From sequence record OR980947: a stretch of 64,000 nt of DNA; one strand, given 5' to 3'. The notes below the pieces were generated by a model that made no database searches, had not been told where the DNA came from, and saw only the letters and a list, made by a program, of their open reading frames with translations. The stretch is from Shigella phage Tf. Position numbers and translations under genes: made by a program. This document shows, piece by piece, positions 1,578-57,122 of this stretch (positions are counted from its first letter, which is position 1; every line of letters starts with the position of its first letter).

Positions 1578-1606
1578 TTGACAATGCCCCTTGACATTGG
1601 TAATGT
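1578..1606 (+). promoter_or_regulatory. sigma70-like promoter (TTGACA-17-TAATGT)
   Basis: aaaagtgTTGACAatgccccttgacattggTAATGT; consensus -35 with second TTGACA inside spacer. Confidence 0.5.
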
Positions 1607-1698
1607 TGTTCGAGGGGGTTTATCTTAAAGGGATTCACTTAAAAGATTCTTTATAGATAAGCTTAAAAAATTGCTTGCAATCAGATATCAAAACAAGT

Positions 1699-1766
1699 AA
1701 ATTACTAATCAACGGGAGGTCATTACCTCCCCACTAAATAAAAGCCCTTAAACTAGGAGATTCAAA
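1699..1766 (+). repeat. early-gene upstream module copy d
   Basis: aatcaacgggaggtcattacctccccactaaataaaagcccttaaactaggagattcaaa; hairpin arms changed in a compensatory way. Confidence 0.65.
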
Positions 1767-2297
1767 GTGAACAAGTTCAAAGCCATCAATTACATTCGTT
1801 CAAATGCTGTAATGTCTAAGCCTGTTAAAGATACCTATGAATTTCGTTGTAATGGGGTACACTTTGCAACCATTACCAAATCAGAAAACGGGGTTTATTA
1901 CGTCCATCGTCGTAATGTTGCAACCGTTGTAGTCCGTCACTTTATGCAAGCTGTAGCGGAACTATTACCGCTATTCTTAGAAATTTACTTGGATGAGTGT
2001 AAAAACGTTCACAATCACGTTAAAAACCTTTTAAATAGTTATAAAATGGCTTATGAGCGTTCTATCAAGTCATTGAACAAGTTTTATAAAGCCCCTGTAA
2101 ACACTGTTTCAATGGCTTACAATGTAAGCGGTGAGTTGGTTAGTCTCTTCGAAGTGGAAGAAATCGAACTATATAACTCACGTCCTAGCGGTTACTCTAA
2201 GACACTGGGAGAAGGCTTATCTTTCAATATCAAGAACTTAGAAAAAACTTTAAAAGATATTGAAAAAGATATTGACGAGACAATAAAAAATCTGTAA
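1767..2297 (+). CDS. hypothetical early protein (176 aa, GTG start)
   Basis: ORF; conserved upstream module with AGGAGA RBS; sigma70-like promoter at 1578. Confidence 0.5.
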   Translation: MNKFKAINYIRSNAVMSKPVKDTYEFRCNGVHFATITKSENGVYYVHRRNVATVVVRHFMQAVAELLPLFLEIYLDECKNVHNHVKNLLNSYKMAYERSIKSLNKFYKAPVNTVSMAYNVSGELVSLFEVEEIELYNSRPSGYSKTLGEGLSFNIKNLEKTLKDIEKDIDETIKNL

Positions 2298-2377
2298 ATT
2301 GTCAATCAACGGGGAGGGAATGACCTTCCCCACTAAATAAAACCCTTAAACTACTTCCTAAACTGGAGATTCAAAAA
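2288..2377 (+). repeat. early-gene upstream module copy e
   Basis: aaatctgtaaattgtcaatcaacggggagggaatgaccttccccactaaataaaacccttaaactacttcctaaactggagattcaaa. Confidence 0.65.
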
Positions 2378-2626
2378 ATGGCAACTATCCGCGCAATTGT
2401 AAATTCTTATGGCTGCTACACTCTGGACGTTAAATTTGATATAGGCGGGACTGATGAGTGTTTCGAACTGGTGAAGACGGTCATTAAACAAGTTATCCCA
2501 GATTATAACCCTACTGATGACTTCTGGAAAGATGCTGTAAAAGAGGCATTAAACGACGAGCATCACTATCATTACTGGGGTGACTTGATTGTTTCCCTGT
2601 ACTACAATAAACAAGGTTACAACTAA
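2378..2626 (+). CDS. hypothetical early protein (82 aa)
   Basis: ORF; conserved upstream module; followed by two hairpins and a T-run. Confidence 0.5.
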   Translation: MATIRAIVNSYGCYTLDVKFDIGGTDECFELVKTVIKQVIPDYNPTDDFWKDAVKEALNDEHHYHYWGDLIVSLYYNKQGYN

Positions 2627-2666
2627 TCGACGCAACGGGGCTAAATAGCCCCAGATACCTTTATAC

Positions 2667-2693
2667 AGCCCCTTTCCCATAGGGGCTTTTTTA
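2667..2693 (+). terminator. rho-independent terminator ending the rightward early block
   Basis: agcccctttcccataggggc + tttttt; preceded by second hairpin ggggctaaatagcccc at 2637-2652. Confidence 0.65.
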
Positions 2694-2699
2694 CGTCTT

Positions 2700-3400
2700 A
2701 TCAAATCCTATACAATCCTTTTCCTTTCCTTTCCAGAATCTATCCCACTGATTCGATAGAATCTATCTCGTACCTTAAAAGCAATAACTCTATAGCTTAC
2801 TCTATAGCCCCTTATCAAATCAACTTAAATAAAAGCCAATAACCCCAGAAAGGGGATGGCCCATTAATTGGTATTGTTACCAATCCCTAAAACGCTCTAT
2901 AAAGCTCTATAACAGCCTTATCAACCTAACTTAAGGGATTGCATTACCTCACCCTTAAAAGCCCTTTATAAAGCTTCTGAGAGCCTTAAAAGAATCTTAT
3001 AAGGGTGTAAGCTTATAGGCTGATTAGTATCTTGTGAATGGTTAAACAATCCCTTGATAGTCACTAAAAAGTATGTTATAGGGGCTTAAAAGTTGCTTAA
3101 AAGTAGCTTAAAAGTTACTTCAAAGTTACGTAAATGCTAGCCCCCTTAACATTTTCTTAACAATTTCTTAACAAACCCTACATAGTTATGCTTGTTAGGA
3201 ACTTGTCAGCACCTTGTTAAATCTTTGTTAAAACCATGTAAAAACCTTGTAAGAACCTTCGACATAGCCTTAAAAGCTCCTGTAAAGCCCTATAAAGAGC
3301 TATCCATACAGTTGAGGGGTAAATACTAGGGAGAGCCTTAAAAGAGCTTACAAGGGGCTATAGAGAGCTTTTAAGAGGTATGTTTAAGAAGTCACTAAGA
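2700..3400. repeat. array of CTTAAAAG / CTATAAAG / CTTATAAG-type short repeats in ORF-free region
   Basis: many copies, e.g. ttgcttaaaagtagcttaaaagttacttcaaag (11-bp phasing), gccttaaaagctcctgtaaagccctataaagagc. Confidence 0.7.
2865..2888. promoter_or_regulatory. palindrome-containing site taattggtattgttaccaatccct (copy 1), operator-like
   Basis: inverted repeat ttggta..taccaa; exact 24-nt duplicate at 3516-3539. Confidence 0.45.
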
Positions 3401-4260
3401 AGCAAAGGGAACGATAAGACCAGAGATAGTGACCATGTTAATAGCTTGTTAAAAAGATTAAACACTTGTTAGAGACTTGTTAATTATCTTAACAAAATAA
3501 CTCCTAAAAATTAACTAATTGGTATTGTTACCAATCCCTGTTAGCTCTTGTTAGTCATCTGTTAAGAAACTATAAAGACCATGTATCGACTGTTAAGAAC
3601 TTGTTACACCCTTGTTAGTTCTGTTAAGAATCTGTTAAGACCTTTGGAGAGATGTTAAGAGCTTGTGAGAACTGTTAAGAGATTGTTAAGGATATTTTAA
3701 AATTTTGCAAAGGGGATGTTAAGGAGCTGTTAAGGGCTACCAAGCAGATATACATCCTAATCAGATATTTTCAGTTCCTTCAAAGACCCTAAAAAATGAC
3801 TTGACAGTCCTATTTTATAAAAATTTTAAGATTCTGAATAATTACCTATACAGCCTTTTAAAAATACAGGTAGAAACAGGCTTATAAGATACCTTGTTAG
3901 TACCGTGTTAGACCTTGTGAGATAAGGTCTGTAAAGATATTCCTGTTAAGTTTGTTAAAACAGTCTATATAGAGGCTTAGTAAACCTAGTGAACACCTAT
4001 AGAGAGTGTCATAGGTAACATAATGGGTTACTGTTAAGTAACACAGTTAACCTAGAGATTAAGAGGTGTATAGAGGCTTCTAAGAGCGTATAGAGGGATG
4101 GTTAAGGTGATTGTATAGGTTGTTAAGAAGGCTTGTTAGAAGAGTGTTTAGAAGGGCTATACAGAGGGGGCTATTAAGACCACTAGATAGTTACTAAGAT
4201 ACTATATAGTACTATATAACTATATAGAGAGTAAGATTAAGAAGGTTGTTAAGAAGGATA
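3130..4260. repeat. array of (C)TTGTTA / TGTTAAG(A) repeats at about one helical turn spacing
   Basis: roughly 35-40 copies, e.g. cttgttacacccttgttagttctgttaagaatctgttaagacc and gatgttaagagcttgtgagaactgttaagagattgttaagg. Confidence 0.75.
3516..3539. promoter_or_regulatory. palindrome-containing site taattggtattgttaccaatccct (copy 2)
   Basis: exact duplicate of 2865-2888. Confidence 0.45.
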
Positions 4261-4344
4261 GATATTTTATTCACATATGATGGTGACCCAGAGGTTGGGA
4301 CAACCGATAAAATTTTATAAAAATATAAATTTCGTAAATTTTAC

Positions 4345-4374
4345 TCAATAAAAAGCCCCCGATTAAGGAGGCTC
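4345..4374 (-). terminator. rho-independent terminator (minus strand)
   Basis: minus-strand agcctccttaatcgggggct followed by ttttt. Confidence 0.5.
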
Positions 4375-4384
4375 TTAAGATATT

Positions 4385-5062
4385 TTAAATCAGTGTTTCC
4401 AGAACTGTTTTTAGGGATGACTTGGTTGTCTGATAAAAATGAGTAAATCCATTATTGTTATCAAATACCTGCATCATGATATCATCTCCCTTGATTGGGT
4501 AAACTCGGATATCATAGTGAAAACCATTAAAGACACAAGAACCACTACAGAATGCTCTAAAGTCACTTGCTGAGATATACTCTTCATGACCTGTGATTTT
4601 TATACAAACACCTTTACTCGGCCTCTTAGGGTTGATATCTTCCATCACAGACATACTTTGTCCACCAAGAGATACCATAGTGACCACTTTACGATTCTGC
4701 TGTTTAACATACATCTCAAGTTTCTTCAAAGTATCTTCATAGAACGGATAAGACTTCTTGACAAAGATACCATCAAGTGGTTCTTTACAATCTTCCATAC
4801 GTTCATTATAAAGCTTGCTAGTAATACTATTAAGAGAGAGCTTCTCATCATCTGTCAAATATGTGTTGATATCATCCAGACTAAGTACCAGATACTTTCT
4901 TTCAAGTTCAAACTTTTTCATATCTATTAAGTCCTGAAAACATTTCTTAGTAATTGCTTCCCATTCTTCGGAGTTCTTCTTCTTCCTCCTCTTCAGATGG
5001 GGAACCATATCTTTCAAGTTCATCCAATTCATCCTGCGAAGGTGTCCCGTAAGATTCTTCAT
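4385..5062 (-). CDS. hypothetical protein (start uncertain)
   Basis: ORF-track ORF; terminator-like hairpin just downstream on minus strand. Confidence 0.4.
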   Translation of the reverse strand: MKNLTGHLRRMNWMNLKDMVPHLKRRKKKNSEEWEAITKKCFQDLIDMKKFELERKYLVLSLDDINTYLTDDEKLSLNSITSKLYNERMEDCKEPLDGIFVKKSYPFYEDTLKKLEMYVKQQNRKVVTMVSLGGQSMSVMEDINPKRPSKGVCIKITGHEEYISASDFRAFCSGSCVFNGFHYDIRVYPIKGDDIMMQVFDNNNGFTHFYQTTKSSLKTVLETLI

Positions 5063-5227
5063 CGTACAATTTCATAGTGTGGTATAGAGTAAGTTTTATT
5101 TCCAGATGACATGGCTAAATCTTCTTTAGTAGAGTTATCCAGTATTGCTTTACGAACAATTTCTTTAAGTTTCATTTTCACTACCTTGTTTGGTTAAGAG
5201 GGGCTATCAAGTAACCCCTTCAAGATT

Positions 5228-5455
5228 TTACTCAGAATCCTCAGATTTCTTTTCAGTCTTCTTCGTTTTCTTTTCAGCTTTCTTCTCAACTTCTGGTTTT
5301 GATTCTACAGTAGCTTCAATAGCAATGTCCAGAAGTTTTGAAAGGTCAGCTTTAAGAACCGTTACAGGTTGTTCATTGTAGTAGTTCTTGTCAAGGTGCT
5401 CTTTCAGTTCGTTCAGAGAGCTAAAGCCGAATGGCTGGATAGGTGTCTTAATCAT
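5228..5455 (-). CDS. hypothetical protein with lysine-rich C-terminus (75 aa)
   Basis: ORF-track ORF. Confidence 0.4.
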   Translation of the reverse strand: MIKTPIQPFGFSSLNELKEHLDKNYYNEQPVTVLKADLSKLLDIAIEATVESKPEVEKKAEKKTKKTEKKSEDSE

Positions 5456-5531
5456 TACTTAGTCTCTCCATAGGCATCTTTTAAGATTGCCTTGTTAATC
5501 ATTTCAGAGATTGCAAAACGAACACATACAG

Positions 5532-6065
5532 CTATAATTGTAGGTTGCATTCTTTACTTACCTCTTCAAGTTTAACCTCAGAGTCCTTGAGTCGTTTCTT
5601 ATGAACTCTGAATCTCATTAGTGAGATGATGATACCAGCTAAAGGAACAGTATACAAGTACCAGATATCATGTACCTTTGCAGTAATCTGCGTAATGGTT
5701 AAGTCTTGAGCTATGGAACTGATTGCTGATACTGCCAGTAATGTTGCTAGGAAAAATGCCAGTACCATAACAATGCTTAGGCAGCCTCTGGCATGGTGTT
5801 CATGCTTAATACACTTGTTCTTTTCGTCAACAACCCTGTTGTAGTCATTTGTAAAGTCTCTGTAGAAGGCTTTCAAGTATTCTTGACTGTAGCCTTCAAA
5901 GCAACCTGTACCGTACCAATAATCACCACCAAAGTGTGCTATGATACCAGTATCTCCGTTTGGTTTAGTTACTCTTAGAGAGACGTGATGACCAGTCTTC
6001 TGATAATCTATCTTATATCTTTCTTCGTAAATCATTTTCCAACCCCTCTCAATCGTTTGTTCCAC
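5532..6065 (-). CDS. hypothetical membrane protein
   Basis: ORF; long hydrophobic segment (LSIVMVLAFFLATLLAVSAISSIA) and second hydrophobic stretch. Confidence 0.45.
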   Translation of the reverse strand: MEQTIERGWKMIYEERYKIDYQKTGHHVSLRVTKPNGDTGIIAHFGGDYWYGTGCFEGYSQEYLKAFYRDFTNDYNRVVDEKNKCIKHEHHARGCLSIVMVLAFFLATLLAVSAISSIAQDLTITQITAKVHDIWYLYTVPLAGIIISLMRFRVHKKRLKDSEVKLEEVSKECNLQL

Positions 6066-6250
6066 TCAAGGTCAACAAGTCTTTGCAGGACTTTCCCTCT
6101 AGGTGTTACACCTTTTAAATCTGCATCGTAACAATGGTAAAAGTCACCTTCAGCATGTTTACCATAGCATTTTCTGATATTCTGGCTTCTGCGATACTGT
6201 TCTAACAAGGACAGTTTGTAGTAATCTTCAACTGTAGTTAGTTTTTTCAT
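6032..6250 (-). CDS. hypothetical protein (72 aa)
   Basis: ORF-track ORF overlapping neighbours by a few codons. Confidence 0.35.
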   Translation of the reverse strand: MKKLTTVEDYYKLSLLEQYRRSQNIRKCYGKHAEGDFYHCYDADLKGVTPRGKVLQRLVDLEWNKRLRGVGK

Positions 6251-6792
6251 TCTTTCACCATAGCGTTTCTGAACTGACGTTGAGTCTCTCTTGTAATTTC
6301 GTTTGGAGTAAAGCCAGCTTTTAACATATGTCTGAAAAGATGCTCTAAGTGATTCTCTTCAATAATATAAGTAGTCTTTGTAACTGATGTTTTAAGTTCA
6401 TCTAAGTTGCTATGTAGCTCCTTACACTTACTGGTAAGTTCTGTATCAACTCTCTTAAATACTGGCATCAGATGTGTATGACCACCTTTAGCAGCATCCA
6501 TGAAAAATTTAAAAGATTCTTCAGAGTCCTTTAAAGCAATCCCTATAAAGTTCTTGTAAACACCTGTGAAAGCTAAAGACTCAATCTCAGCAGTTGAGTA
6601 TACAGTCCCTGCGCACAGTCTTGCAGAGGTACTAAATGTGTGGTTTGGTGTTGTGTCAAAGTCTAAGTTCTTCAGTGGTCGAAAATAAACTGTACCATTG
6701 TGTGATATGTGTGTTACAACAGCCTCAACACTCTTCGAAGGGTTCTGTTTCACATACAAAATAATTTTATCGTGCTCTTTCACTTTAGCCAT
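6247..6792 (-). CDS. hypothetical protein (181 aa)
   Basis: ORF-track ORF, tightly packed with neighbours. Confidence 0.45.
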   Translation of the reverse strand: MAKVKEHDKIILYVKQNPSKSVEAVVTHISHNGTVYFRPLKNLDFDTTPNHTFSTSARLCAGTVYSTAEIESLAFTGVYKNFIGIALKDSEESFKFFMDAAKGGHTHLMPVFKRVDTELTSKCKELHSNLDELKTSVTKTTYIIEENHLEHLFRHMLKAGFTPNEITRETQRQFRNAMVKE

Positions 6793-6864
6793 ATCTACTC
6801 TCCAGAAACTAAAAAGGGAACTACCTCTCGATAGCTCCCATCATAGTCAATATTGTATACTCGG

Positions 6865-7446
6865 TCAAGAGTATTTTTTAGGCAGTAATGCACTGCGCTT
6901 GTTACTCTCTTCACTCAATAGTGCGATAAATTCATCACCTTTACCCTTCCACGGGCTGAATGTCGGAATGTGCTCTCTGATAGCATCAATCACTGTTTTA
7001 AGGGCGTTGTTCTTTAACCACCAATCAGATACCGCTGAAGCTACAATGTAATAAGCACCGTCATCTGTGAAGATTGGCTCAGAGATACATGGTGAAATCA
7101 TAGTGGTAATGATAGAACCATTATTCATGTAGTATGTTCTTTTTTCAACCTTATCAAGAAGTTTATGAAGGTCTGCAAAGAGACTTACCACATCTTTATG
7201 GTCAATATCTTTTTCAAGATTTGCTCTGTATTTCAGTAGTGCAGCATCAACCTCTTTATCATTGAATTTGAAGTATTGGACTTCTTCATTCACGCATACA
7301 CTGATGTTGTTAGTGTTTATCGTCAATTTGCACAGTTTGACTGGAGAATTGATGTTGGTCTGAAAAAGTGCTACACAGCCTTCTACATTTCCAAAATGTT
7401 TGACTAATGTAACTTCTGGTTGGATATGCTCATGTTCTTCTGACAT
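6865..7446 (-). CDS. hypothetical protein (193 aa)
   Basis: ORF-track ORF. Confidence 0.45.
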   Translation of the reverse strand: MSEEHEHIQPEVTLVKHFGNVEGCVALFQTNINSPVKLCKLTINTNNISVCVNEEVQYFKFNDKEVDAALLKYRANLEKDIDHKDVVSLFADLHKLLDKVEKRTYYMNNGSIITTMISPCISEPIFTDDGAYYIVASAVSDWWLKNNALKTVIDAIREHIPTFSPWKGKGDEFIALLSEESNKRSALLPKKYS

Positions 7447-7790
7447 TACAGTTTCCTCATTAAATACTTTTTAAGTTGTGTGTTAGGTTTCTCAAAAACT
7501 TCTATAGAAGATATCTTAACAGATTCACCACGCATACCTGTATGTTTGAATATATAGTACTCTAACATACCTATATACTTTGCTGGTAAGTCATACTTGA
7601 CATACACCGTTACAGAATCTTCAAATTCAACAACCTTTGTACCATCTTTGTAGTTAAACTCTTTAGGATGGTCGTAGTTGTCGATATCGTACATTAAAAA
7701 GAGTCTTTTCCGTTGCATATCAAGCTTATTTGTTAAAGACTCTTTTATATCTGAGAAGTTTTTGTACACTGTGACATGGAGCTTACTCAT
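7446..7790 (-). CDS. hypothetical protein (114 aa)
   Basis: ORF-track ORF; stop/start overlap with neighbours. Confidence 0.45.
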   Translation of the reverse strand: MSKLHVTVYKNFSDIKESLTNKLDMQRKRLFLMYDIDNYDHPKEFNYKDGTKVVEFEDSVTVYVKYDLPAKYIGMLEYYIFKHTGMRGESVKISSIEVFEKPNTQLKKYLMRKL

Positions 7791-8076
7791 CGTTAAACTC
7801 TCTGACGAAGAAATAGTTGACTTTATTATTACCTACCATAAGGTCAAAGCAGGTATTCTCAAAAGGCTTGTTGTAGGCATCGTATGAAACATATGGGTCA
7901 GCCACTTGCTTAGTGCTTAACTTCTTACTTGATGGATTTAAGAGGCCACCATACAGATTCTTGATAGCCTCTTCTACAACAGACCAGATGATTTCGTCAG
8001 TAATTTCTTCGTACAGGTCAAGTTCACGCTCTAGTGAGAAGTCACAAATAGGGAAAATAACCTGTACTTTACTCAT
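7783..8076 (-). CDS. hypothetical protein (97 aa)
   Basis: ORF-track ORF. Confidence 0.4.
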   Translation of the reverse strand: MSKVQVIFPICDFSLERELDLYEEITDEIIWSVVEEAIKNLYGGLLNPSSKKLSTKQVADPYVSYDAYNKPFENTCFDLMVGNNKVNYFFVREFNDE

Positions 8077-8477
8077 TAGCGAATAACCTGTGTTACCTGA
8101 ATAGCTTCAGTTACGGACAAGTCACCCACTTTCTCTTCTTTGATAAAAGTGAAGGTGAGTTCAACAGGTTCTTCTTCTTCTTCTTCTTGCTCAACTGGAA
8201 CACCATTAAGCTCATCAAAGATTGATTGGGTTGTCCAGTCTTCACCACCATCTGGGTAGTGGATTGCATACAGAGGTAACTCTAAATTATACCAAGCAAA
8301 AACAGGACAACCATCTACATCATCTCGACATCTGTGTAGATATGAGTTTGCACCTTCAAAATGTAAATACAGATTACCACTCTTCTCATAGATAATCGCA
8401 TCTCGCAGGTCTAATTCTTCATCTCCACTATAACGGCTAACATCGACTTTAACTTTAATCTGATTGATATTATTCAT
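8076..8477 (-). CDS. hypothetical protein with poly-Glu stretch (133 aa)
   Basis: ORF-track ORF; EEEEEEE run. Confidence 0.45.
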   Translation of the reverse strand: MNNINQIKVKVDVSRYSGDEELDLRDAIIYEKSGNLYLHFEGANSYLHRCRDDVDGCPVFAWYNLELPLYAIHYPDGGEDWTTQSIFDELNGVPVEQEEEEEEPVELTFTFIKEEKVGDLSVTEAIQVTQVIR

Positions 8478-8868
8478 AAAAACCTCTCTCTGCTAGTTTT
8501 ATCTTTTCTTTGAGAGTTTCACAACGCTCTATGTGGTATTTTGCTTCACACTCATGGGTTGCTAACTCTCTTTCAAGTAGAGTTTTATAATAACCTGACA
8601 ATTGCTCTGCTGTCAATGGGTGTTCAGAAATAATATCTAATCCACTCTCTCCAAGAGGGTTGAACCGACCGTACTCATCTACTTTGTAAATCTCGAACCT
8701 GAAAAACCCATTCTTAGCACGGGTAATAGGTGATAGTTCAGATAACTCTACAGTGAACTTTGTAGAAACCTCATCACCGCTTACTACAATCTGGCTGCCA
8801 ATAATCCTCACCATTGAGCCATCACGAGTGTACTTAAAAGTTCCAAAGTCACTAGCCCAAAGCTTCAT
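8470..8868 (-). CDS. hypothetical protein (132 aa)
   Basis: ORF-track ORF. Confidence 0.45.
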   Translation of the reverse strand: MKLWASDFGTFKYTRDGSMVRIIGSQIVVSGDEVSTKFTVELSELSPITRAKNGFFRFEIYKVDEYGRFNPLGESGLDIISEHPLTAEQLSGYYKTLLERELATHECEAKYHIERCETLKEKIKLAERGFYE

Positions 8869-8880
8869 AGTTTTCTCCTT

Positions 8881-43409: not shown

Positions 43410-43410
43410 A

Positions 43411-44735: not shown

Positions 44736-44742
44736 TCACCTA

Positions 44743-45102: not shown

Positions 45103-45103
45103 A

Positions 45104-45403
45104 TTAATCTGCCAACCTTAAATTAAAATTAACACCAAATTTTTCACATACTTCCAACATATACTCAAGGGAGACATTACCAGTGAGATGGATTATGTTG
45201 GATACACGAGCTTGAGAGATACCACAAATTTTAGCGACTTGCTCTTGAGAAAGACCTCTGGATTTAATCTCTCTCTTAAAACGATGTGCAACGAAGTCTC
45301 TCATTTCGTCTACATCCATTGGACAAATATAACTCTCCATTTCAGCCTCTCTGTCAGCCTCCCAATCATCTTGTGGAGCATAAGGGTCAAAGAACTCATT
45401 CAT
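45104..45403 (-). CDS. helix-turn-helix DNA-binding protein (XRE-like, putative)
   Basis: LSQEQVAKICGISQARVSNI HTH signature; start trimmed to internal Met (MNEFF). Confidence 0.5.
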   Translation of the reverse strand: MNEFFDPYAPQDDWEADREAEMESYICPMDVDEMRDFVAHRFKREIKSRGLSQEQVAKICGISQARVSNIIHLTGNVSLEYMLEVCEKFGVNFNLRLAD

Positions 45404-45608
45404 CTTTCTTCTTCCGTTTGCGTGGAGTATCAATCAATGAATCTATGTTTGTAGCCCTAACCTTTTCACGTTCATCATTAAGATAATCATCAAGAGCCTT
45501 CTCAATCTGTGAATCATCTTGACAGATAACTGTAAAGACTGTAAAGCCATCTGTATCGTCAATTATCTTACCATAACCGCTTCTGGGATGTAACTTTTTA
45601 AGAGCCAT
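45396..45608 (-). CDS. hypothetical protein (70 aa)
   Basis: ORF-track ORF. Confidence 0.35.
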   Translation of the reverse strand: MALKKLHPRSGYGKIIDDTDGFTVFTVICQDDSQIEKALDDYLNDEREKVRATNIDSLIDTPRKRKKKDE

Positions 45609-45609
45609 A

Positions 45610-45993: not shown

Positions 45994-46281
45994 AATGACC
46001 TCAAAGTTATATTAAATTTTGTATTACGTTGAGTATAAAAATAAGCTATAACACCTGACTTGTCAACAGACTTTATAGCTTATTTGGCAGATTTTTTATA
46101 AGGCTACTGCCATCCTTCCATACATTACCATACCTCACCGGACCCTACCCGACCGGGCCTCACCCTGCCTTGCCAAACATCACTTAAAAATCCTCTTAGA
46201 AGACTCTTAAGTGATGCTGGTGAGTACCCGTTGGTTTATGCTGCTCAGTATACTCACCAAATTTTCTATGTCAACAACTTT

Positions 46282-47421: not shown

Positions 47422-47578
47422 TACATGCGTAAAGCTCTAAGTCATTTTTATCTGGTTTATGGAAACAGTTTGACCCACAACGACACCGGAATAGTTTACC
47501 ATCAACACGAAGAATGAATGTTTCAAGCTCACCATCTTCTGTAAGAACTGCGTTCTTAAATTTATCTTCTACAGTCAT
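47360..47578 (-). CDS. zinc-ribbon protein (72 aa)
   Basis: CRCGSNC ... CNAC cysteine pairs. Confidence 0.4.
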   Translation of the reverse strand: MTVEDKFKNAVLTEDGELETFILRVDGKLFRCRCGSNCFHKPDKNDLELYACNACYTWYHSEVKNDNSVQTK

Positions 47579-47781
47579 TTTCTCTTACCACCAATCTCTA
47601 CGTCAATCACTTGAACATCACCAGCAACATCAAACTTATGAATGATGCTTTCCACAGTGTAAGTCCAACCCTCGATTCGAACCAACTCACCTTCTCGTGG
47701 GACGATTGGGTTACGTTGAGCTACGGTTGTAGTGGAGTGAACAACATCATAACAGTAGATATAGTTTACTAGGACTTCCAT
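47575..47781 (-). CDS. hypothetical protein (68 aa)
   Basis: ORF-track ORF. Confidence 0.35.
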   Translation of the reverse strand: MEVLVNYIYCYDVVHSTTTVAQRNPIVPREGELVRIEGWTYTVESIIHKFDVAGDVQVIDVEIGGKRK

Positions 47782-47790
47782 ATCTTCACC

Positions 47791-48045
47791 TTAAAAGAAT
47801 AAGTCAGATGCTTTTGGGTTGATTAAACTCATGCAGTTTTGAAGCATGGCTTCATTGTACCCATCTTGGCAAACTACGTAGAGTTTATCGAAAGTTTCTT
47901 TTGATACTGGGTAGACTGATAACTCTTGGCATACACTAAGATACCATTCGTAATCTAAGCCTCTGCTCCAAGCGTCAGCGATTAGGGCTGTAGCTTTGTC
48001 TTTGCTTCTGATAACTTCATCAGACTTTTCAATTTTACTGTTCAC
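47791..48045 (-). CDS. hypothetical protein (84 aa)
   Basis: ORF-track ORF. Confidence 0.4.
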   Translation of the reverse strand: MNSKIEKSDEVIRSKDKATALIADAWSRGLDYEWYLSVCQELSVYPVSKETFDKLYVVCQDGYNEAMLQNCMSLINPKASDLFF

Positions 48046-48207
48046 GATGTTCTACCTCTCTGTACGTTCGTCGATAGTATATGATAAGCTGTGCTAACTC
48101 GTTGCTTTTAACATCTGAACGTAGCAGTTGCCAATCAAAACCTTTACCGACTCTTCCATATAAGCTAAATAATTTTACTTTGCGTTTCATTTTGGTACTC
48201 CCAATAC

Positions 48208-48435
48208 TCAGAGACCAATACTAATACGTTCACCCTTAAGAACTCCAGTACGGTCTTTTGCAATCTTCCCTTCAACAATAAGAATGTGTGCAGACCTTAA
48301 AGTGTCACTGTTAAAACCTTTTACGAACTTACTAGGCATCACTACAATAGACATCTCCTGAATCAAATCTGGAGTGTAGCAATTGTCGTGAAGTTGCTGA
48401 ATAACGTCTGCAAGTGTCATTTTTGATGTCTCCAA
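48208..48435 (-). CDS. hypothetical protein (75 aa)
   Basis: ORF-track ORF. Confidence 0.35.
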   Translation of the reverse strand: METSKMTLADVIQQLHDNCYTPDLIQEMSIVVMPSKFVKGFNSDTLRSAHILIVEGKIAKDRTGVLKGERISIGL

Positions 48436-48626
48436 TACTCAATGTCAATAAGTTCTTGTGCAATGCTTTTCAGATTACCTTTCAAGAAAACCTTCTCAGA
48501 ACCTGAAAGAGATGAATTGTCAATTAACCTGTTCATTCTCTCAAACAACTTCTGCTTACGATTCTTGATAGTTTCCTTTGAAGCACCTTTCATCATCGCT
48601 GCATGGGTTCTTCCACGGTGGCTCAT
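48417..48626 (-). CDS. hypothetical protein (69 aa)
   Basis: ORF-track ORF. Confidence 0.35.
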   Translation of the reverse strand: MSHRGRTHAAMMKGASKETIKNRKQKLFERMNRLIDNSSLSGSEKVFLKGNLKSIAQELIDIEYWRHQK

Positions 48627-48677
48627 AAGCCCTCCTATACAAGATATAGTATAAGGTACTCTTCCATGAGCACCTTG

Positions 48678-49229
48678 TCAAATTAGTTTTGCAAACTCTC
48701 CGTGGAGTTTAATAGCAGCTTCACAGTAAGCTTTATGGGCTTCTTCAGGCGTGTCAAACATACCAAGATGATAGTTTTTACCTTGTAAACGTATCATTGC
48801 TCGAAACCTTTTATTTATCTTCTGTACACCTTTTGGCAACCCAGATAGGGACTTTCTTGACCGATTGCAAGAGTTTTGTGAAGCTGTACAAACCCTTAAA
48901 TTCAAGTACCTATTGTCCCAACCATCCCCATTCTTATGGTCAACCTGTAAGGTTTTATCAGGCAGATATCCATCAATATACAAGATAACTAAACGATTTG
49001 CTTGGTAACTCCTTCCATCAATCAGCAACTGAACTGACTTGTGTCCATCAGTATTTGTTCTGTAGTTTCCAGCCCTCTTACCTCCAAATCTAGAGTTAAA
49101 ATTTGCATTACCTTCTCTAAACTTCCAAGTAAAGACCCCTGTTTCGGGGTCGTAGTCCAATAGCTCCTTAAGACGAATTTCTGTAATCATTTCAACACCA
49201 TCAATGTACCTCATACCAGCTCTTACCAA
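48678..49229 (-). CDS. HNH homing endonuclease with AP2 DNA-binding domain (free-standing)
   Basis: HNH core QVDHKNGDGWDNRYLNLRVCTASQNSCN and AP2-like LPKGVQKINKRFRAMIRLQGKNYHLGMFDTPEEAHKAY; overlaps 3' end of DNA polymerase exon 2. Confidence 0.8.
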   Translation of the reverse strand: MVRAGMRYIDGVEMITEIRLKELLDYDPETGVFTWKFREGNANFNSRFGGKRAGNYRTNTDGHKSVQLLIDGRSYQANRLVILYIDGYLPDKTLQVDHKNGDGWDNRYLNLRVCTASQNSCNRSRKSLSGLPKGVQKINKRFRAMIRLQGKNYHLGMFDTPEEAHKAYCEAAIKLHGEFAKLI

Positions 49230-49757
49230 CCTTACCTGTGCCAGTTACAAGCGTCTCACTCTTCAAACCTAAATTCTTAGATGCCTGACCATACATCCAG
49301 TCAGTTATGGCTTTAACTTCTTGAGTCATACTTTCTGGGCATTCCCAACTGTTCTCATCGTGGTATGCCAGCAAAAGTCTAGCACCAATTGCTGGTTTCC
49401 GTCCATTTAATTTTGTCAACCCTTCTTCACATGCTCTTCTACAAGCAAGGTTAATTGCCTCGTTCTGAATCTGACTTTCCGAACCCATGAGCAAATAATT
49501 CAACAACTTATGTGGAGATTTACACCACAACCAAGCTCCAGCAACCTTTACAAAACCCCCTTTAGAGATTGCAGCAGTCTTACCAAACACCTCTTCAAGA
49601 GCCTTTTTAGTTGCTTTGTAGTCAGCTTCCAAGTCATCTAGCAGCTTCTTAATCTTTGGCAAACGCACAAAGTAAGTCTGTTTAGTTAATGCACCTTCCT
49701 GAGTAGTGGCTGCCTTAATAGTTTTAGCAAACTTTTCATCACCTGCACCGAACAATA
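49201..49757 (-). CDS. DNA polymerase (family A), exon 2: C-terminal part from motif B second half through motif C
   Basis: starts ..LFGAGDEK (T7 pol LYGAGDEK), contains motif C LLAYHDE and ends ...WYEVH like T7 DNA polymerase. Confidence 0.8.
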
Positions 49758-50068
49758 CATCTGGTCAATACACTCGCAAGGTGTACCAGTTCTCTTATGA
49801 ACTTCTCCGCATTTCTACGGAGTGTCGGACTATATCACGTAGTAGTAATACTACCGTTGCACTTGGGAATGGTCATTAGCTTACCACCCTACTCTACTCA
49901 GTTCATACATTAAGTATGCTTTTCGATAGTCTCTGAACGTTTCTCTGTTAGGAATCTCTATAGTTATGTTATTTGCTTTAGGAGTCCTAACAGAGACTTC
50001 GCTGCTGATTACCATATCTTTACAGACTTAGGCTTCCAGCAATTCACAACGTTTTACATGCGCCACTG
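49758..50068 (-). ncRNA. group I self-splicing intron interrupting the DNA polymerase gene
   Basis: on the minus strand: exon 1 ends in U pairing with G of internal guide gcgcat (P1), terminal G before exon 2, and P/Q/R/S-like core elements aattgctggaagcc, aatcagcagc, gttcagagacta, gatatagtcc in canonical order; no long ORF inside. Confidence 0.75.
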
Positions 50069-52244
50069 ACGCATAGATACCATTCTTAGCCTTCTTGCGG
50101 CCTTTACTAATCTCATGAAGAAGATTCTCATCCTGAGTAGCTCGACAAGTCAAGATGTCCTGCTCATCATTCAAGCTAAAGTAAATACTGTTCAGTGTAT
50201 GTGCATCAGTCCCTGAATAGACAACGTACAGGTCATTCTCAGAGTCATAGCGCAGGTACTTATCAATCTCTGGGTTGAGGTACTCATCAAAATGTTTACA
50301 GTAATAACGTCCATCTTCTTGACGAATAAACTCAATCTCTTCTTTACCTTGCGTTACCGCTTTGGTGAACTCTTTATCACCCATAAAGTTACAAAGTAGA
50401 ACTAACTGGGCTGAGTTCATATCAACAGAGACTACGTTGGTTCCCTCTTCACAAATCCACACCTCCCTCATAGGTGCTCCATAGACAGCAGCACCAGACG
50501 GTACGTTTACAATACCATATTGTGTCATTCGTCCAGTTGAAGTACCAAACACCATTGCACCAGCACTAAGGCGACCATCAGGACGAATCTGGTTCAACCA
50601 ACCTTTTTCACCATCCTTTGAGTTCTCAATAGTTCTGCGTCGGTGCATCAAAGTATAGTACTTAGCAATCTTCTGTCCAAGCTCACCTTCAATCGTATCA
50701 TAAGAAGACTCAGTAAGTTTTGGTGAAGTACGGATTAAGCAAGGTTCAAGCAAATCTGTGTACTTCTTCACAGACCAGTTATGCTCAATGTACTGTACAC
50801 CTTCATGTTCAACATAGCTCAAACCACACCGCTCAACCATTTCCTGCCACTTAGGATGTTTTGTAATCATCTTTTTATTGTCTTTGAAACGACAAACTTT
50901 GACAGGGCGACCGTCTGAGTCTTTCTTGTAGTTCCAGTCATCTGGAATCCAACCAACTGATTTCAAGTAGTCTTTAACAACTGCTACCTGAGTCATACGA
51001 GAAACTTCAAAATCAATTGGTGTATATGGTGCATCAATCAAACCTGTGTAGCGACTTGACTCAAGTTCAAAGTGGTTAACAACGTGACTGTTATAGTACT
51101 TCACAGTTTTAACTGTTTTTACTGGCTTCCAGTCTTTGCATTTCTTACCAATCTTTGCATTCAACTCATTGCAAATTGCACGAGCATCCTTCATTGCTAC
51201 AAAGCCTTCCTTGTACTCTTCACCAGTTACAGAGTTGGTTGGTGTATAGCAATTTCTCTTTTCAATGTTAAAAATCTTTGTAGTTGGCTTACCAAATGGC
51301 TTGATTTCATATGTCTGCATCTCACCGTTACGTACCTGCTGACGATACTTTGTCTTAGGGTACTTGGTAATTCTTTTCAGTCCATCTGCATGACCAAATG
51401 TTTCAACATACTCATTCCAAGCTTTTGCAAACTCTTCTCCAGTGACTTTACCTTTGGTCTTAATAGTTGGAGGAAGATGTGGTTCAACTTCTGAAGCAAG
51501 CTCATTAGTCAACTTGTCAAGTTCCTTTACATGGAACTCCATAAGTTCTTTATCAGCTTTCCAACCATTGATAGCCTGTTGACTCATCCAGAAAGATGTT
51601 TCTTTAGCTCGCATGTAGGTTTCATAAGTGTCTATGCCACACTTCTTAAGCTTGAGATACTCATTATCAAGTGCCCGTTTAGTTTTGGCGTTAATACGGA
51701 TATCTTCTACAACACGAGTGAAGATTTCTGCATTCCACACACCCCAATGCTCAATCTCTGGTTTACGAACACCAACACGAGCACCCCATGCAGCCAAACC
51801 ATGAGCACCTTTATAACCCTTTGGAGTTGGTCTATCCATCCACTGAACACGAGACTGGATAAGAGAGTCCTGAAAGAAATTACTCCACGGTTTACACTTT
51901 GGGTTATCAAAGTTCCATAAATCAGGTGCAATGTGATTGAAAACCCACCAGTCATAACCGAGACCGTTATGGATGCAAAGACGTTTTGCCTTTAACGCAA
52001 ATTCAACGCCTTCACGCAAACCACCTTTAATGTACTTGGTATACTTGTGACCGAGGATAGGCTCATCTGTAAAGACCCATACAGGCGGCTCTTCATCGTC
52101 AGATTTATAGTCTGCGAAAGCCATTACGTGCACTTTAGTGAACTCAAGGAGTAAACCATCAGTTTCTGTATCACCAACCAAATGTAAGTTTTTAAAATCT
52201 ACGTTTTCCATTTCTACTCCCTCTAAATCATTAACCTCATACAT
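50069..52244 (-). CDS. DNA polymerase (family A), exon 1: 3'-5' exonuclease and polymerase domains up to first half of motif B
   Basis: Exo I motif VGDTETDGL; motif A-like VSVDMNSAQL; ORF-track ORF ends RKKAKNGIYAS... with stop 12 codons into the intron. Confidence 0.85.
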
Positions 52245-52270
52245 TACTGCAAAAAATTATAAAAAGCAAG

Positions 52271-52299
52271 TTGACAATGCACTTGACAAGGTGTTAATC
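52271..52299 (+). promoter_or_regulatory. sigma70-like promoter for rightward replication operon
   Basis: aaaaagcaagTTGACAatgcacttgacaaggtgTTAATC. Confidence 0.45.
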
Positions 52300-52467
52300 T
52301 TTGCGAAGTGGGTTTTTACTTAAAAGGTTACTTAACAGTTTAACTATACAGATACTTTAAAACTCTTAAAAGATTATTTAAAAGCTTTTAAAAAGCTTTA
52401 AAGTATAACGTATAGAATACGTTAAGATAAAAGATTAAAACTTAATAGTTACTTAAAAGAGGCTTAC

Positions 52468-54497: not shown

Positions 54498-54505
54498 AAG
54501 AGAGA

Positions 54506-54706
54506 ATGAAGATGAGAGTAAAAGACAATTTTAAAGTTATTGACCACCGTTTAGTGGAACTCTCATCTCTTTCCAATGAGGTAATGATTGAACGTCTTAA
54601 GAGAGTTGAATCACGAAGGAAAGAGATTGCAGATGAAATTCATGAACTGGACAAGATTGAAAATGGATTGAAGGCAGAACTACAACGAAGAGGTGCTAAT
54701 GTCTAA
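54506..54706 (+). CDS. hypothetical coiled-coil protein (66 aa)
   Basis: ORF-track ORF overlapping primase start. Confidence 0.35.
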   Translation: MKMRVKDNFKVIDHRLVELSSLSNEVMIERLKRVESRRKEIADEIHELDKIENGLKAELQRRGANV

Positions 54707-56684
54707 AGGTCGTAAATTGAAAGAGGCTGGTCAGTTTATTGGTCATTGTGCATGTCCACGTTGTGGTTCATCAGATGCTGGTTCAATCTATCATCATGAC
54801 GATGATTCTTATTCGATGACTTGCTTTAGCTGTAACAAAGGTTTCCCAGAGTGGGATTTTGATAAAGGACAAATCGTGAGCACTTATTCTACTGGTTCAG
54901 ATAACAAAAACCGTACTTTCCGTGGAATGGATTTAGACGATGTAAAAGAAAACCTTGAAGCAATGGACTTAAAAGACAGGAAAATCCCTGCAAAAGTCCT
55001 TGAACGCTTAGGTATCAAGGTTGACATTGACAGTGATGGTGAAATTGACGCACATTTCTATCCAACTTACAAACGTAATGAAGATGGCAAGCTAGAACAT
55101 GTTGGCTACCGTGTTCGTCACCGTTACCCAGAAGACCATCCAAAAGAGCACCTACGTGGTAAGTTAAAGGACTTTTCTGGTGGTGTTGGAGACATTAAAG
55201 GTGAACTGGCAATGTTCGGTTCATGGATTGCTCCAGAAGGTGGTAACCGTCTATTCATCTGGGAAGGTGAGATGGAATGTGCGACAGCAATCTACATGAC
55301 TTCTCTGGCAATTAAGGACAAATCTCGTCGTAAGAATTACTGTCACGTATCTGTTCCATCAGGTGCAAACATCAAGTCTATCAAAGATAACTATCAGTAC
55401 ATTACATCATTTGATGAGATTTACTTGTGCTTTGATAACGATGAAGCAGGTGCTAAAGCCACTAAAGAGGCTGCTGGCATTCTCCCTATCGAGAAGGTTC
55501 GTTTATTCCAGTATCCAGAGGGTGTGAAAGACCTTAACGAGTGGTGGACAAAGTTCTATAAAGAGAAAGACACAGTTCTGGAAGGATTTAAGCAGCGTAT
55601 CTACAACGCACCTCGTTACTGTCCTGCTGGTATCAAGAACTTTGCAGATGGTTTTGAGGCAATGAAGAATCGTGGTCAGATTCCATTGATTCCTTTCCCA
55701 GAATCTTTCGGGGATTTGAACAGACTGACTTATGGTGGTTACGGTTTAGGTGAGATTACAACTCTGGCAGCACCATCTTCAGTGGGTAAATCTGCATACA
55801 CTCGTGAAATGATTTACACTGCTTGGAAAGATACCGATTACAATATTGGTGTAATTCCAGTTGAAGATACCTATGAAGAGTTGATGGAGATGCTCTGTGC
55901 AATTCACCTGAGCAAGCAGATTTCTGAGATTCCTTATGACGAACGTGATTGGGATGAATTGAAGGAAGCACATGCAGAACTGTCTAAAGGTCGTCGTATC
56001 CATATCGTTGACCATCAAGGGGCAATTGACCAAGATAACCTGCTGGAATTTGTTGACTATCTTGTTAACAGTTTAGACTGTAAGATTATCATTCTTGACC
56101 CTATCACGTTAGCTCTGTCACGTTCTGATACGGATGAAGAAGAAGTTTTGTCTGAGCTATTGCGTCGTTGCAAACGCTACCAGTATGCGCAGGTAAACGT
56201 ATGTCACGTTCGTAAGAGTGCAGGTGGCCAGAAAGCTAACTCTGAAGGTGGGGATATCTCTGAAGAGGATATCAAGGGTTCTGGTGCGTATTTCCAGATT
56301 TCCATGAATAATATTTTGTTAATGCGTAACAAGGTTGACCCAGACCCTGTTAAGAAAAACTTGACAAAAATCAAGTTAACTAAATGTCGTCGTCACGGTA
56401 AGTCAACGGGTATTGCTGGTCATACTTGGTACAATCCAGATACAGGACGTCTTATCAAAGCTTCTGGATGTGGTGTTGATATTGATGGTGCAGCAGAAAA
56501 TATCCGTCAACAGTTTGGTATTGGTGAAGCTGAAGACCATTACGATGACTCTTTGCCACATTATGAGGATGAAGTGTTTGACCGTGAGACTGGTGAAGTC
56601 TATACTGAAGAGCAGCGTCAAAGCTCAACGATTCCACCTGTATTAAGTGAGGATGCAGATGACTGCCCGTTCGAAACTGAGTGA
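54693..56684 (+). CDS. bifunctional primase-helicase (T7 gp4-like)
   Basis: N-terminal Cys4 zinc ribbon (CPRCGS...CFSCNKGF), central TOPRIM-like region, C-terminal DnaB-family helicase with Walker A APSSVGKSA. Confidence 0.85.
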   Translation: MLMSKGRKLKEAGQFIGHCACPRCGSSDAGSIYHHDDDSYSMTCFSCNKGFPEWDFDKGQIVSTYSTGSDNKNRTFRGMDLDDVKENLEAMDLKDRKIPAKVLERLGIKVDIDSDGEIDAHFYPTYKRNEDGKLEHVGYRVRHRYPEDHPKEHLRGKLKDFSGGVGDIKGELAMFGSWIAPEGGNRLFIWEGEMECATAIYMTSLAIKDKSRRKNYCHVSVPSGANIKSIKDNYQYITSFDEIYLCFDNDEAGAKATKEAAGILPIEKVRLFQYPEGVKDLNEWWTKFYKEKDTVLEGFKQRIYNAPRYCPAGIKNFADGFEAMKNRGQIPLIPFPESFGDLNRLTYGGYGLGEITTLAAPSSVGKSAYTREMIYTAWKDTDYNIGVIPVEDTYEELMEMLCAIHLSKQISEIPYDERDWDELKEAHAELSKGRRIHIVDHQGAIDQDNLLEFVDYLVNSLDCKIIILDPITLALSRSDTDEEEVLSELLRRCKRYQYAQVNVCHVRKSAGGQKANSEGGDISEEDIKGSGAYFQISMNNILLMRNKVDPDPVKKNLTKIKLTKCRRHGKSTGIAGHTWYNPDTGRLIKASGCGVDIDGAAENIRQQFGIGEAEDHYDDSLPHYEDEVFDRETGEVYTEEQRQSSTIPPVLSEDADDCPFETE

Positions 56685-56754
56685 TAGCTATAAAAGGGAG
56701 GGGTTCACACCCTTCTTTGAAGAAAAAAGTTTAAATAAATTTCAGGAAGAGTGT

Positions 56755-56783
56755 TTGACAAAGGTTGATAGGTTCTATAGAAT
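56755..56783 (+). promoter_or_regulatory. sigma70-like promoter (TTGACA-17-TAGAAT)
   Basis: gagtgtTTGACAaaggttgataggttctaTAGAAT. Confidence 0.5.
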
Positions 56784-56937
56784 GCTCTACATGAAATGTG
56801 ATGGATGCGTTGAGGCAGAAGAAAAGTTCCATCACAGCATAATCACAGTCACCATTACTATACCTAAACATAATATTGGTTGGCTCTTTATAATTAAAGA
56901 AAATGTGTTTGAATATCAAGTATATCGGAGAATATCA

Positions 56938-57084
56938 TGAAACACTCTAAAGCATTTGAAAAAGTTTTTGGGGATTCCTTAAAAGCCACTGCTGGTAAAC
57001 CAGCAAAATACTATGAAGAAAAACGTGTAAGAACTGGAAAAACTGCACGTAAAGCAGCTTCTAAAGATAAGCACAACTTCCAGT
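56938..57084 (+). CDS. small basic protein (48 aa), not in ORF track
   Basis: ATG at 56938; MKHSKAFEKVF...; downstream of promoter at 56755. Confidence 0.3.
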
Positions 57085-57093
57085 AATTAGTGT

Positions 57094-57122
57094 TTGACAA
57101 TAGAGTATCAACAAACTAGAAT
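57094..57122 (+). promoter_or_regulatory. sigma70-like promoter (TTGACA-17-TAGAAT) upstream of SSB-like gene
   Basis: agtgtTTGACAatagagtatcaacaaacTAGAAT. Confidence 0.55.

Follow-up and report, generated by a model that had tools for sequence, protein, structure and literature searches.

Predicted host-type promoters with perfect -35 hexamers, some doubled or overlapping stem-loops, in a 64-kb window of the Felix O1-like Shigella phage Tf

Introduction

Felix O1-type phages are widely used in Salmonella typing, biocontrol and therapy and, to our knowledge, their transcription programme has never been mapped. By which signals might the genes of such a phage be transcribed, and what could be the meaning of promoter hexamers that are doubled or buried in palindromes? 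These questions are raised by a stretch of 64,000 nucleotides from Shigella phage Tf (sequence record OR980947), here called the window, in which an initial annotation made from the sequence alone had noticed at least nine sites with a perfect TTGACA preceded by an A-tract and followed at 17 bp by a -10-like hexamer. These sites had been proposed to be strong promoters for the host RNA polymerase, three of them with a second TTGACA inside the spacer and others with a -35 hexamer inside an inverted repeat, the latter being interpreted as an operator for a dimeric factor that occludes the -35 element. From the analysis reported here it is probable that the sites are host sigma-70 promoters serving the non-structural genes and the tRNA clusters, and that the palindromes at internal promoters are stem-loops acting at the RNA level and not operators.

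A 5-kb piece of the window is 95–96.5% identical over its full length to about 250 Felix O1-like phages from E. coli, Salmonella and Shigella, as expected for a member of Felixounavirus, and the gene layout of the window is the four-unit scheme described for Felix O1, with 23 tRNA genes at 13.7–18.5 kb. Felix O1 encodes neither an RNA polymerase nor any known factor that modifies the polymerase, and the authors of its genome analysis left its temporal control and the passage of transcription through many terminators unexplained (Whichard et al. 2010, PMC3185647).

Results

Enrichment, position and architecture of the promoter motif

The hexamer TTGACA alone is present in 77 copies in the window where 64.7 ± 7.8 are expected, i.e. 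without enrichment, and relaxed -35/-10 scans of the window did not reveal any enrichment either (58 vs 52.7 and 34 vs 32.2). When TTGACA had to be followed by TAnnnT at 16–18 bp, 19 sites were obtained against 4.3 ± 2.1 expected; when one or more A4 tracts were required within the 25 nt upstream, 9 were left against 0.65, with two A4 tracts 5 against 0.04, and not one of 300 dinucleotide shuffles attained any of these composite counts. TTGACA by itself and relaxed matches are uninformative, in contrast to the strict composite motif. Non-coding DNA, which makes up about 10% of the window, harbors 15 of the 77 TTGACA copies, 13 of which face the downstream gene. About 12 composite sites lie within or border intergenic DNA, and about ten are intergenic and directed into downstream genes or tRNAs.

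All coordinates named in the initial annotation are correct. Seven of its nine A-tract sites are intergenic and correctly oriented (1578, 11518, 12052, 13556, 13647, 52271 and, on the minus strand, 46274) and two are intragenic (22307 and 48681 on the minus strand), and the spacer given as 17 bp has this length at some sites and 18 bp at 12052, 13647 and 52271. The sites at 15056, 46066(-) and 57094 also belong to the family, with a weaker A-tract or none. The working set therefore consists of 1578, 11518, 12052, 13556, 13647, 15056, 52271 and 57094 on the plus strand and 46274 and 46066 on the minus strand, with 3801 and 56755 as doubtful members. A scan with a position-weight matrix for members with an imperfect -35 yielded almost none outside the training set.

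Alignment of 12 sites on the -35 hexamer gives an upstream consensus of A6 (-55 to -50), a T-rich segment (-49 to -46), A6 (-45 to -40) and G (-39), with A in 8–11 of the 12 sites at positions -55 to -52 and -44 to -40; A-tracts are absent at P57094 and P56755. The distal and proximal sub-sites of upstream (UP) elements, to which the polymerase alpha subunits bind with their C-terminal domains, occupy matching positions (PMC2613000), namely about -45 to -37 and -58 to -45 (PMC2613000).

Conservation of the promoters

Orthologous promoters were taken from phages ASO1B (Felixounavirus), SUSP2 (Suspvirus), Mordin and Sf14 (both Mooglevirus) and from IMG/VR contigs. For seven promoters with 10–24 distinct homologues each, 0% variation was found in the -35 hexamer and in T1, A2 and T6 of the -10 hexamer (7/7), while the spacers vary at 6–24% of cells and -10 positions 3–5 at 2–30%. 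An invariant -35 together with invariant positions -12, -11 and -7 and drifting spacers is the pattern expected if sigma-70 reads the sites, and this comparative conservation is the strongest evidence in favor of the predicted promoters. Chance matches, or mere repeats without promoter function, might account for the unenriched TTGACA and relaxed matches and for the two intragenic members among the nine A-tract sites, but the composite motif lies 14-fold to more than 100-fold above expectation, the conservation tracks the sigma-70 contact pattern and the sites are intergenic and face downstream genes. Because of the composite enrichment and the conservation pattern, this explanation is effectively refuted and we assign it almost no probability. 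The proposal of strong host-type promoters is well supported by a consensus -35 and a TAnnnT at optimal spacing, by the UP-like A-tracts, by the intergenic orientation and by the sigma-70-type conservation.

A doubled -35 hexamer at three promoters

In P1578, P11518 and P52271 the second TTGACA noted earlier is indeed present (at 1591, 11530 and 52283), 12–13 bp downstream of the first. By chance about 0.04 exact tandem pairs would be expected, calculated as about 77 sites × 2 spacings / 4096, where three are present. A module of about 120 bp is common to the three promoters and is composed of A-tracts, TTGACA, 6–7 nt, TTGACA, 4–6 nt and TAnnnT, followed in its downstream part by CTTAAAAG-like octamers at about +12 and +26 and by TATACAGATA. 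The octamer CTTAAAAG is present in 28 copies in the window where 5.7 are expected, and the three leaders fold better than shuffled sequences (z-scores in Table 1). Rfam returned only tRNAs and one group I intron and no leader, put or nut-type RNA family, and Pfam found no domain in the first genes downstream of the doubled promoters except DUF5681.

Both hexamers are invariant in all variants while the surrounding sequence changes. In the case of P11518, which lies at the head of a rightward transcription unit, both hexamers and T1, A2 and T6 of the -10 are invariant in 9 sequence variants, whereas all six nucleotides between the hexamers vary (AAGGAC, AAGTAC, AATGAC, TTCCTC, AGCCTC, AGGGGA); the -10 is conserved as TAGGCT, TAGCCT, TAAGTT or TAGTGT, 17 bp from the first hexamer. 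This promoter had been published as P41 in the register TTGACA-N15-TATAGG (Whichard et al. 2010, PMC3185647), and the register N17-TAGGCT is favored here because the A of TATAGG is a G in most relatives. Back-to-back with P11518, a leftward TTGACT-N17-TACCAT block is invariant in five genomes. P52271, at the head of the replication-gene unit in the gap between the DNA polymerase gene and gene 97, has preserved both hexamers and TGnTAnnCT in 10 variants, and P1578 has kept the second hexamer and a TAnnnT (TAACTT, TACATT) in ASO1B and SUSP2. A scan of the ASO1B genome, all but the late-gene segment at 38–56 kb, found no doubled sites other than these three. In a distant Hafnia phage, the same two divergent regions carry doublets, whose periods are 10 and 11 bp and in both of which a TAnnnT lies 17 bp from the first hexamer. 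In an Erwinia Kolesnikvirus the hexamers at the DNA-polymerase locus are single, and the other locus carries two distinct promoters spaced by about 34 bp.

As TAnnnT always lies 17–18 bp from the first hexamer and no -10 is found at promoter spacing after the second, the alignments indicate that the first hexamer is the working -35. A second promoter using the downstream TTGACA was considered and rejected, there being no conserved TAnnnT 16–18 bp after the second hexamer. The second hexamer appears to be under selection and is loosely placed, 10–13 bp from the first and 4–7 bp from the -10. The doubled promoters form a separate class of three, two of which head the long divergent transcription units.

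Palindromes at internal promoters

The inverted repeats reported at 12052 and 13556 are real, as judged by folding (Table 1). A -35 "often" buried in palindromes is found at 3–5 of about 12 sites, with arms at 12052, 13556, 46066(-) and 57094, and is not a class-wide property. Arms are 6–13 nt long with gaps of 10–22 nt, and the distance from centre to centre is about 20–35 bp. The four clear palindrome promoters are all located in short spacers between co-directional genes. The palindrome at 13548–13579 starts 11 nt past the stop codon of gene 12122–13537 and corresponds to the Felix O1 rho-independent terminators t42/t43 predicted with TransTerm (PMC3185647); in a terminator-like scan of the palindromes it was the only one to pass. 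P46066(-) heads an operon with a gene for an HTH_3 protein and is conserved in SUSP2.

Comparison of relatives reveals how the arms have changed. The arms at P57094 read AGAGTA..TACTCT in the window vs GGAGTA..TACTCC in Mooglevirus and Suspvirus, a compensatory change from A-T to G-C. At P12052, the left arm differs in relatives by A>G and C>U, with G·U pairs preserved on the plus strand, and the arm changes of P12052 and P13556 are transitions compatible with G·U pairing only on the transcribed strand. In the Hafnia phage SarahDanielle the gene upstream of the P13556 orthologue is absent; there the promoter AAAAAGGGTA-TTGACA-N17-TATAGT is kept and the right arm is missing. The SarahDanielle orthologue of P57094 also has kept the promoter and has no palindrome. 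The P12052 palindrome also yields a mirror-image promoter-like sequence, GTGACA-N18-TAGAGT (12059–12088, minus strand), that faces gene 11668–12039 and could be an antisense promoter.

Table 1. Coordinates of promoters, leaders, inverted repeats, cassettes and transcription units in the window. Promoters are named by the first position of the -35 hexamer.
Feature	Position	Strand	Details
P1578	1553..1606	+	A-tracts 1558-1563, 1569-1574; -35 TTGACA 1578-1583; second TTGACA 1591-1596
P1578 -10	1601-1606	+	TAATGT; 17-bp spacer; TGG just before
P1578 leader	1613..1760	+	CTTAAAGG at 1624; CTTAAAAG at 1638; TATAGATA; hairpin cassette 1714-1735; z -3.1
Leftward promoter, back-to-back with P11518	11464..11492	-	TTGACT 11492-11487; 17-bp spacer; TACCAT 11469-11464
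P11518	11493..11546	+	A-tract 11506-11511; -35 11518-11523; second TTGACA 11530-11535; -10 TAGGCT 11541-11546
P11518 leader	11548..11667	+	CTTAAAAG at 11567; CTAAAAAG at 11581; long imperfect hairpin including 11629/11638; z -2.7
P12052	12027..12091	+	A-tracts; -35 12052-12057; -10 TAAAGT 12076-12081; 18-bp spacer
P12052 inverted repeat	12048-12061 / 12079-12091	+	fold z -3.4
P13556, first tRNA-cluster promoter	13531..13584	+	-35 13556-13561; -10 TAATAT 13579-13584
P13556 hairpin arms	13548-13557 / 13570-13579	+	fold z -2.3
P13647, second tRNA-cluster promoter	13622..13680	+	near-consensus UP element; -35 13647-13652; -10 TAAAGT 13671-13676
P13647 weak inverted repeat	13652-13658 / 13674-13680	+	
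P15056	15056..15084	+	TTGACA; 17-bp spacer; TATAGT; inside tRNA region
P46066(-)	46038..46085	-	-35 46066-46061; -10 TATTTT 46043-46038
P46066(-) inverted repeat	46085-46073 / 46051-46039	-	13-nt arms; fold z -2.7
P46274(-)	46247..46274	-	TTGACA; 16-bp spacer; TATACT; then hairpins
P52271	52246..52300	+	A-tracts 52251-52256, 52261-52265; -35 52271-52276; second TTGACA 52283-52288
P52271 -10	52295-52300	+	TAATCT; 18-bp spacer; TGT before (extended -10)
P52271 leader	52302..52467	+	CTTAAAAG at 52319, 52365, 52452; TATACAGATA; z -1.6
P57094	57094..57131	+	TTGACA; 17-bp spacer; TAGAAT 57117-57122
P57094 inverted repeat	57102-57111 / 57122-57131	+	fold z -1.6
3801 TTGACA	3801..3806	+	in ORF-free repeat region; doubtful promoter
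Cro/CI-type HTH protein gene	45104..45433	-	Pfam HTH_3; only recognisable candidate DNA-binding regulator found
Repeated cassette	931-1001, 1690-1766, 2288-2377		TAAATT, 10 nt, hairpin GGGGAGGGAATGACCTTCCCC, ACTAAATAAA, Shine-Dalgarno
Transcription unit	1-2626	+	tail of long rightward unit
Transcription unit	4385-11439	-	leftward unit
Transcription unit	11668-42470	+	tRNAs, then structural genes
Transcription unit	42510-52211	-	replication genes
Transcription unit	from 52468	+	further replication and nucleotide-metabolism genes

Neighboring features

P46274(-) is not conserved in Mordin or SUSP2. It reads into the hairpins GGTGAGTA..TACTCACC and CACTTAA..TTAAGTG (46100–46250, minus strand), which are followed by an unusually G-rich stretch with GGTGAGG repeats and by no open reading frame (ORF) before P46066. 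Between P46274 and P46066 two genes have been gained or lost, ASO1B and SUSP2 having two extra genes there, and the segment 46100–46250 may represent a small RNA unit or the scar left by a deletion.

For the DNA polymerase gene, no convincing leftward promoter was found in 52212–52467, only a weak TTTAAA-N18-AATAAT besides a lone TATAAT. This perfect minus-strand TATAAT (52261–52256) lies between the A-tracts of P52271 and has neither a -35 nor a TGn. The start codon of the polymerase gene is probably the ATG at 52211, preceded by AGGGAG, and not that at 52244. The gene is split by a group I intron at 49805–50080 on the minus strand (Rfam RF00028, 62.9 bits, full length) into ORFs 50028–52244 and 49201–49755, with 48678–49229 adjacent; in SUSP2, Mordin and ASO1B it is uninterrupted and about 2.7 kb long.

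Ahead of the structural (late) operon the sole promoter-like site is TAGACA-N17-TATACT at 18630–18658, and a good intrinsic terminator (18711–18728 plus T6) lies between this site and the first late ORF (18771), a layout that would call for read-through or antitermination. Another promoter-into-terminator arrangement is seen at 8893–8942 on the minus strand, where a conserved TTGACA-N17-TATCTT at the 3' end of the endolysin gene lies just upstream of the strong terminator AGGCTCCTTCGGGAGCCT-T6. In the tRNA region, an extra tRNA absent from the ARAGORN list was matched by Rfam at 14289–14371 on the plus strand (44.2 bits), and in ASO1B a tRNA-Asp is annotated at the corresponding part of the cluster.

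The region 2700–4385 is an ORF-free stretch of 1.7 kb packed with short motifs in arrays with a period of 11 bp, namely GCTTAAAAGTT x4 at 3084–3127, CTTAACAATTT, ACCTTGTTAAA x4.5 at 3211–3259 and TGTTAAGAGAT x6.6 at 3622–3690, as well as an exact 24-nt repeat at 2865 and 3516. A comparable ORF-free gap is present in ASO1B, SUSP2, Mordin and Sf14, and the region could be an origin, a protein-binding array or a region of non-coding RNA. The TTGACA at 3801 within it was rejected as a reliable promoter; no TAnnnT follows at 16–18 bp, Mooglevirus has lost the hexamer and Felixounavirus relatives have it in degraded form.

Discussion

In the architecture proposed for these promoters, the helically phased pair of A-tracts (-55 to -50 and -45 to -40), which resembles a UP element, would bind the alpha C-terminal domains and the perfect TTGACA would be bound by sigma region 4, with a TAnnnT -10 element after a spacer of 17–18 bp, sometimes with TGn ahead; very strong upstream contacts would make up for the often weak -10, as in the early promoters of T4. 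The closest promoter architecture is found in E. coli sigma-70 promoters with full UP elements and in phage early promoters of the T4 type (also T5 and T7 A1), the T4 early promoters following a 'UP/-35/TGn/-10' design (PMC2988021). Consensus -35, spacer of 17–18 bp, TAnnnT and A/T tracts at -40 to -60 are common to both, TGn is present at two sites here, and in both cases a virulent phage without its own RNA polymerase is concerned. T4 early promoters combine a strong -10 with TGn, in contrast to the sites described here with their perfect TTGACA as -35 and their often weak -10, and unlike in T4 no Alt-like modifier is known here.

What the second hexamer might do at the three unit-heading promoters can be explained in different ways. 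A class-specific regulator of phage or host origin that recognizes direct repeats, and that might work in concert with the CTTAAAAG repeats (at about +12 and +26) to switch these promoters off (or on), would fit hexamers that stay invariant while the sequence between and around them changes, the presence of only three doubled sites per genome, the doublets that a distant genus has retained at the same two loci and the shared module of about 120 bp with its over-represented CTTAAAAG repeats. A repeat period of 10–13 bp is unfit for a rigid dimer, though, no candidate direct-repeat binding protein was identified, the Erwinia relative has no doublet, and the CTTAAAAG copies pair with inverted copies in well-folding leaders and so may act as RNA; we regard such a regulator as possible and somewhat doubtful. 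Re-binding of the second TTGACA by sigma region 4 after the polymerase has advanced by 10–13 bp, resulting in an early pause at about +11 to +14, is less likely still. Such a pause would set promoter escape or would let an antitermination device, protein or structured leader RNA, load. It has a precedent at phage 82 PR', where sigma region 4 on a -35-like element causes a pause at +14/+15 that requires an RNA shorter than about 15 nt (PMC3326312), a limit which all five offsets observed here (10, 11, 12, 12 and 13 bp) respect; the three leaders are structured and the units hold many intrinsic terminators whose bypass needs explaining. As at lambdoid PR' promoters, a -35-like hexamer that sigma region 4 could re-bind lies downstream of the true -35, and the promoter is followed by terminators to be passed. 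The resemblance is geometric only, as is the whole argument. A conserved -10-like pause element is missing downstream, neither a Q-like or N-like gene nor a Q-binding element is recognized here, none of the relatives examined carries a Q-like annotation, and a pause would cut the output of promoters built for strength.

With regard to the palindromes, the occlusion of the -35 by a dimeric factor that had been proposed initially is not supported by the data. Operators for a dimeric phage protein such as the Cro/CI-type HTH_3 protein encoded at 45104–45433(-), which would shut the promoters off, could be imagined because such a gene is present (its orthologues are annotated as transcriptional regulators in Mordin, SUSP2 and ASO1B), because it belongs to the P46066 operon, where a palindrome with 13-bp arms brackets the -35 in a layout compatible with autoregulation, and because three palindromes (12052, 13556, 46066) each reach significance on their own. 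Yet no half-site is common to any two palindromes, no palindromic k-mer recurs among the promoters, the arm motif of 46066 is not enriched elsewhere and the distance between arm centres varies. Arm evolution is compensatory or wobble-compatible and does not conserve sequence, one palindrome (at 13556) coincides with a published terminator prediction, and the Hafnia orthologues of 13556 and 57094 do without palindromes; operators of this kind are thus quite improbable. Some repression by the encoded Cro/CI-type HTH protein is possible, and a protein would more plausibly target the doubled TTGACA than the palindromes. At about four internal promoters the palindromes would rather be promoter-specific stem-loops, most likely acting on read-through RNA from the upstream unit as terminators or attenuators or as 3'-end hairpins, with the -35 or -10 of the next promoter packed into the hairpin arms or loop.

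The closest known analogue of the palindrome promoters is the promoter-early stem-loop (PeSL) cassette known from T4-type phages (Arbiol et al. 2010, PMC2839356; Comeau et al. 2014, PMC4122927), in which the stem-loop terminates upstream transcription and which marks indel breakpoints (PMC2839356, PMC4122927). Both combine a near-consensus TTGACA-N17-TATAAT promoter, preceded by AT-rich DNA, with a stem-loop (G·U pairs included) that sits over the -10 or between -35 and -10; both are located in short spacers between co-directional small genes, the spacers ending in a Shine-Dalgarno sequence and the next start codon, and in both indels between close relatives break at cassettes. This combination of promoter and stem-loop is found at 12052, 13556, 46066 and 57094 and weakly at 13647, and the A3G3-loop-C3T3 stem of a PeSL from phage nt-1 resembles the AAAGGG..CCCTTT stem at 13548–13579. 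In contrast to the PeSL, a repeated cassette of about 100 bp in many copies, the palindrome promoters are unique sequences with shorter stems and longer loops, and they occur in a different subfamily, the Ounavirinae. The only repeated elements here are the three doubled-hexamer modules and the TAAATT/GGGGAGGG-hairpin cassettes at 954, 1714 and 2311, which match direct repeats of 39 and 57 bp recorded in the Felix O1 paper. Both indels that distinguish positions 1–2800 of the window from ASO1B break exactly at copies of this TAAATT-hairpin(GGGGAGGG..CCTTCCCC)-Shine-Dalgarno cassette, which resembles PeSL-style gene shuffling. A literature search for PeSL together with Felix returned nothing relevant. 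The palindromes are better explained as PeSL-like overlaps of terminator and promoter than as operators.

Several observations weigh against host promoters combined with RNA-level stem-loops. The -10 hexamers are poor at several sites (TAGGCT, TAATCT, TATTTT), and taken together the promoter windows show no better folding than genomic windows of matched GC content (Fisher p = 0.13). The hairpins make poor canonical intrinsic terminators because that of P12052 lacks a U-tract and most loops measure 10–22 nt, and the covariation comprises very few independent changes. The second hexamer is dispensable, as the Erwinia relative lacks the doublet. In Felix O1, genes 41 and 42 peak at 25 min and not at 5 min in reverse transcription-PCR (PMC3185647), so that an 'early' timing is not established. 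As the searchable literature yielded no start-site or RNA-seq data for any Felixounavirus, we infer usage, start sites, strength and timing of the promoters from motif statistics, genomic position and conservation.

With respect to earlier work, the basic promoter finding is already in the public record as a prediction and its novelty is low, since sister genomes already annotate these promoters. Five putative host-type promoters were proposed for Felix O1, two of which match P11518 ('P41') and P15056 ('P45'), and none was reported in the 96-97 gap where P52271 lies (Whichard et al. 2010, PMC3185647). The ASO1B record (GenBank MZ726792) carries promoters labelled 'similar to TTGACA(N15-18)TATAAT' at the equivalents of 1578, 11518, 12052, 15056, 46066, 52271 and 57094; the ASO1B paper counts 18–19 promoters per genome, and 42 BPROM promoters were reported for UAB_Phi87. 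The Felix O1 and ASO1B predictions concern the same sites but give single -35/-10 matches only, and do not describe the UP-like tracts, the doubled hexamer or the shared leader. The conserved second -35 hexamer together with the shared leader is a modest new detail.

A phage that lacks a polymerase of its own would be expected to rely on strong host-type promoters, and none of these results will surprise a specialist. The outcome of this work is a curated, conservation-backed promoter map of the 64-kb window, which corrects the -10 register of the published P41, assigns a promoter to the gap between the DNA polymerase gene and gene 97, for which the Felix O1 paper gives none and the ASO1B record one, and recasts the palindromes as candidate PeSL-like overlaps of promoter and terminator instead of operators. 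The one feature that merits experiment is the invariant second -35 hexamer with the shared leader at the heads of the units. There is a slim chance that the doubled promoters and their structured leaders are entry points for terminator-resistant transcription, at which sigma region 4 would hop to the second hexamer and the polymerase, held at about +11 to +14, would be modified; the modifier may be a put-like RNA element of the leader or an unrecognized phage protein. If true, such entry points would explain how Felix O1-type phages read through their many internal terminators and how the timing of their gene expression is brought about.

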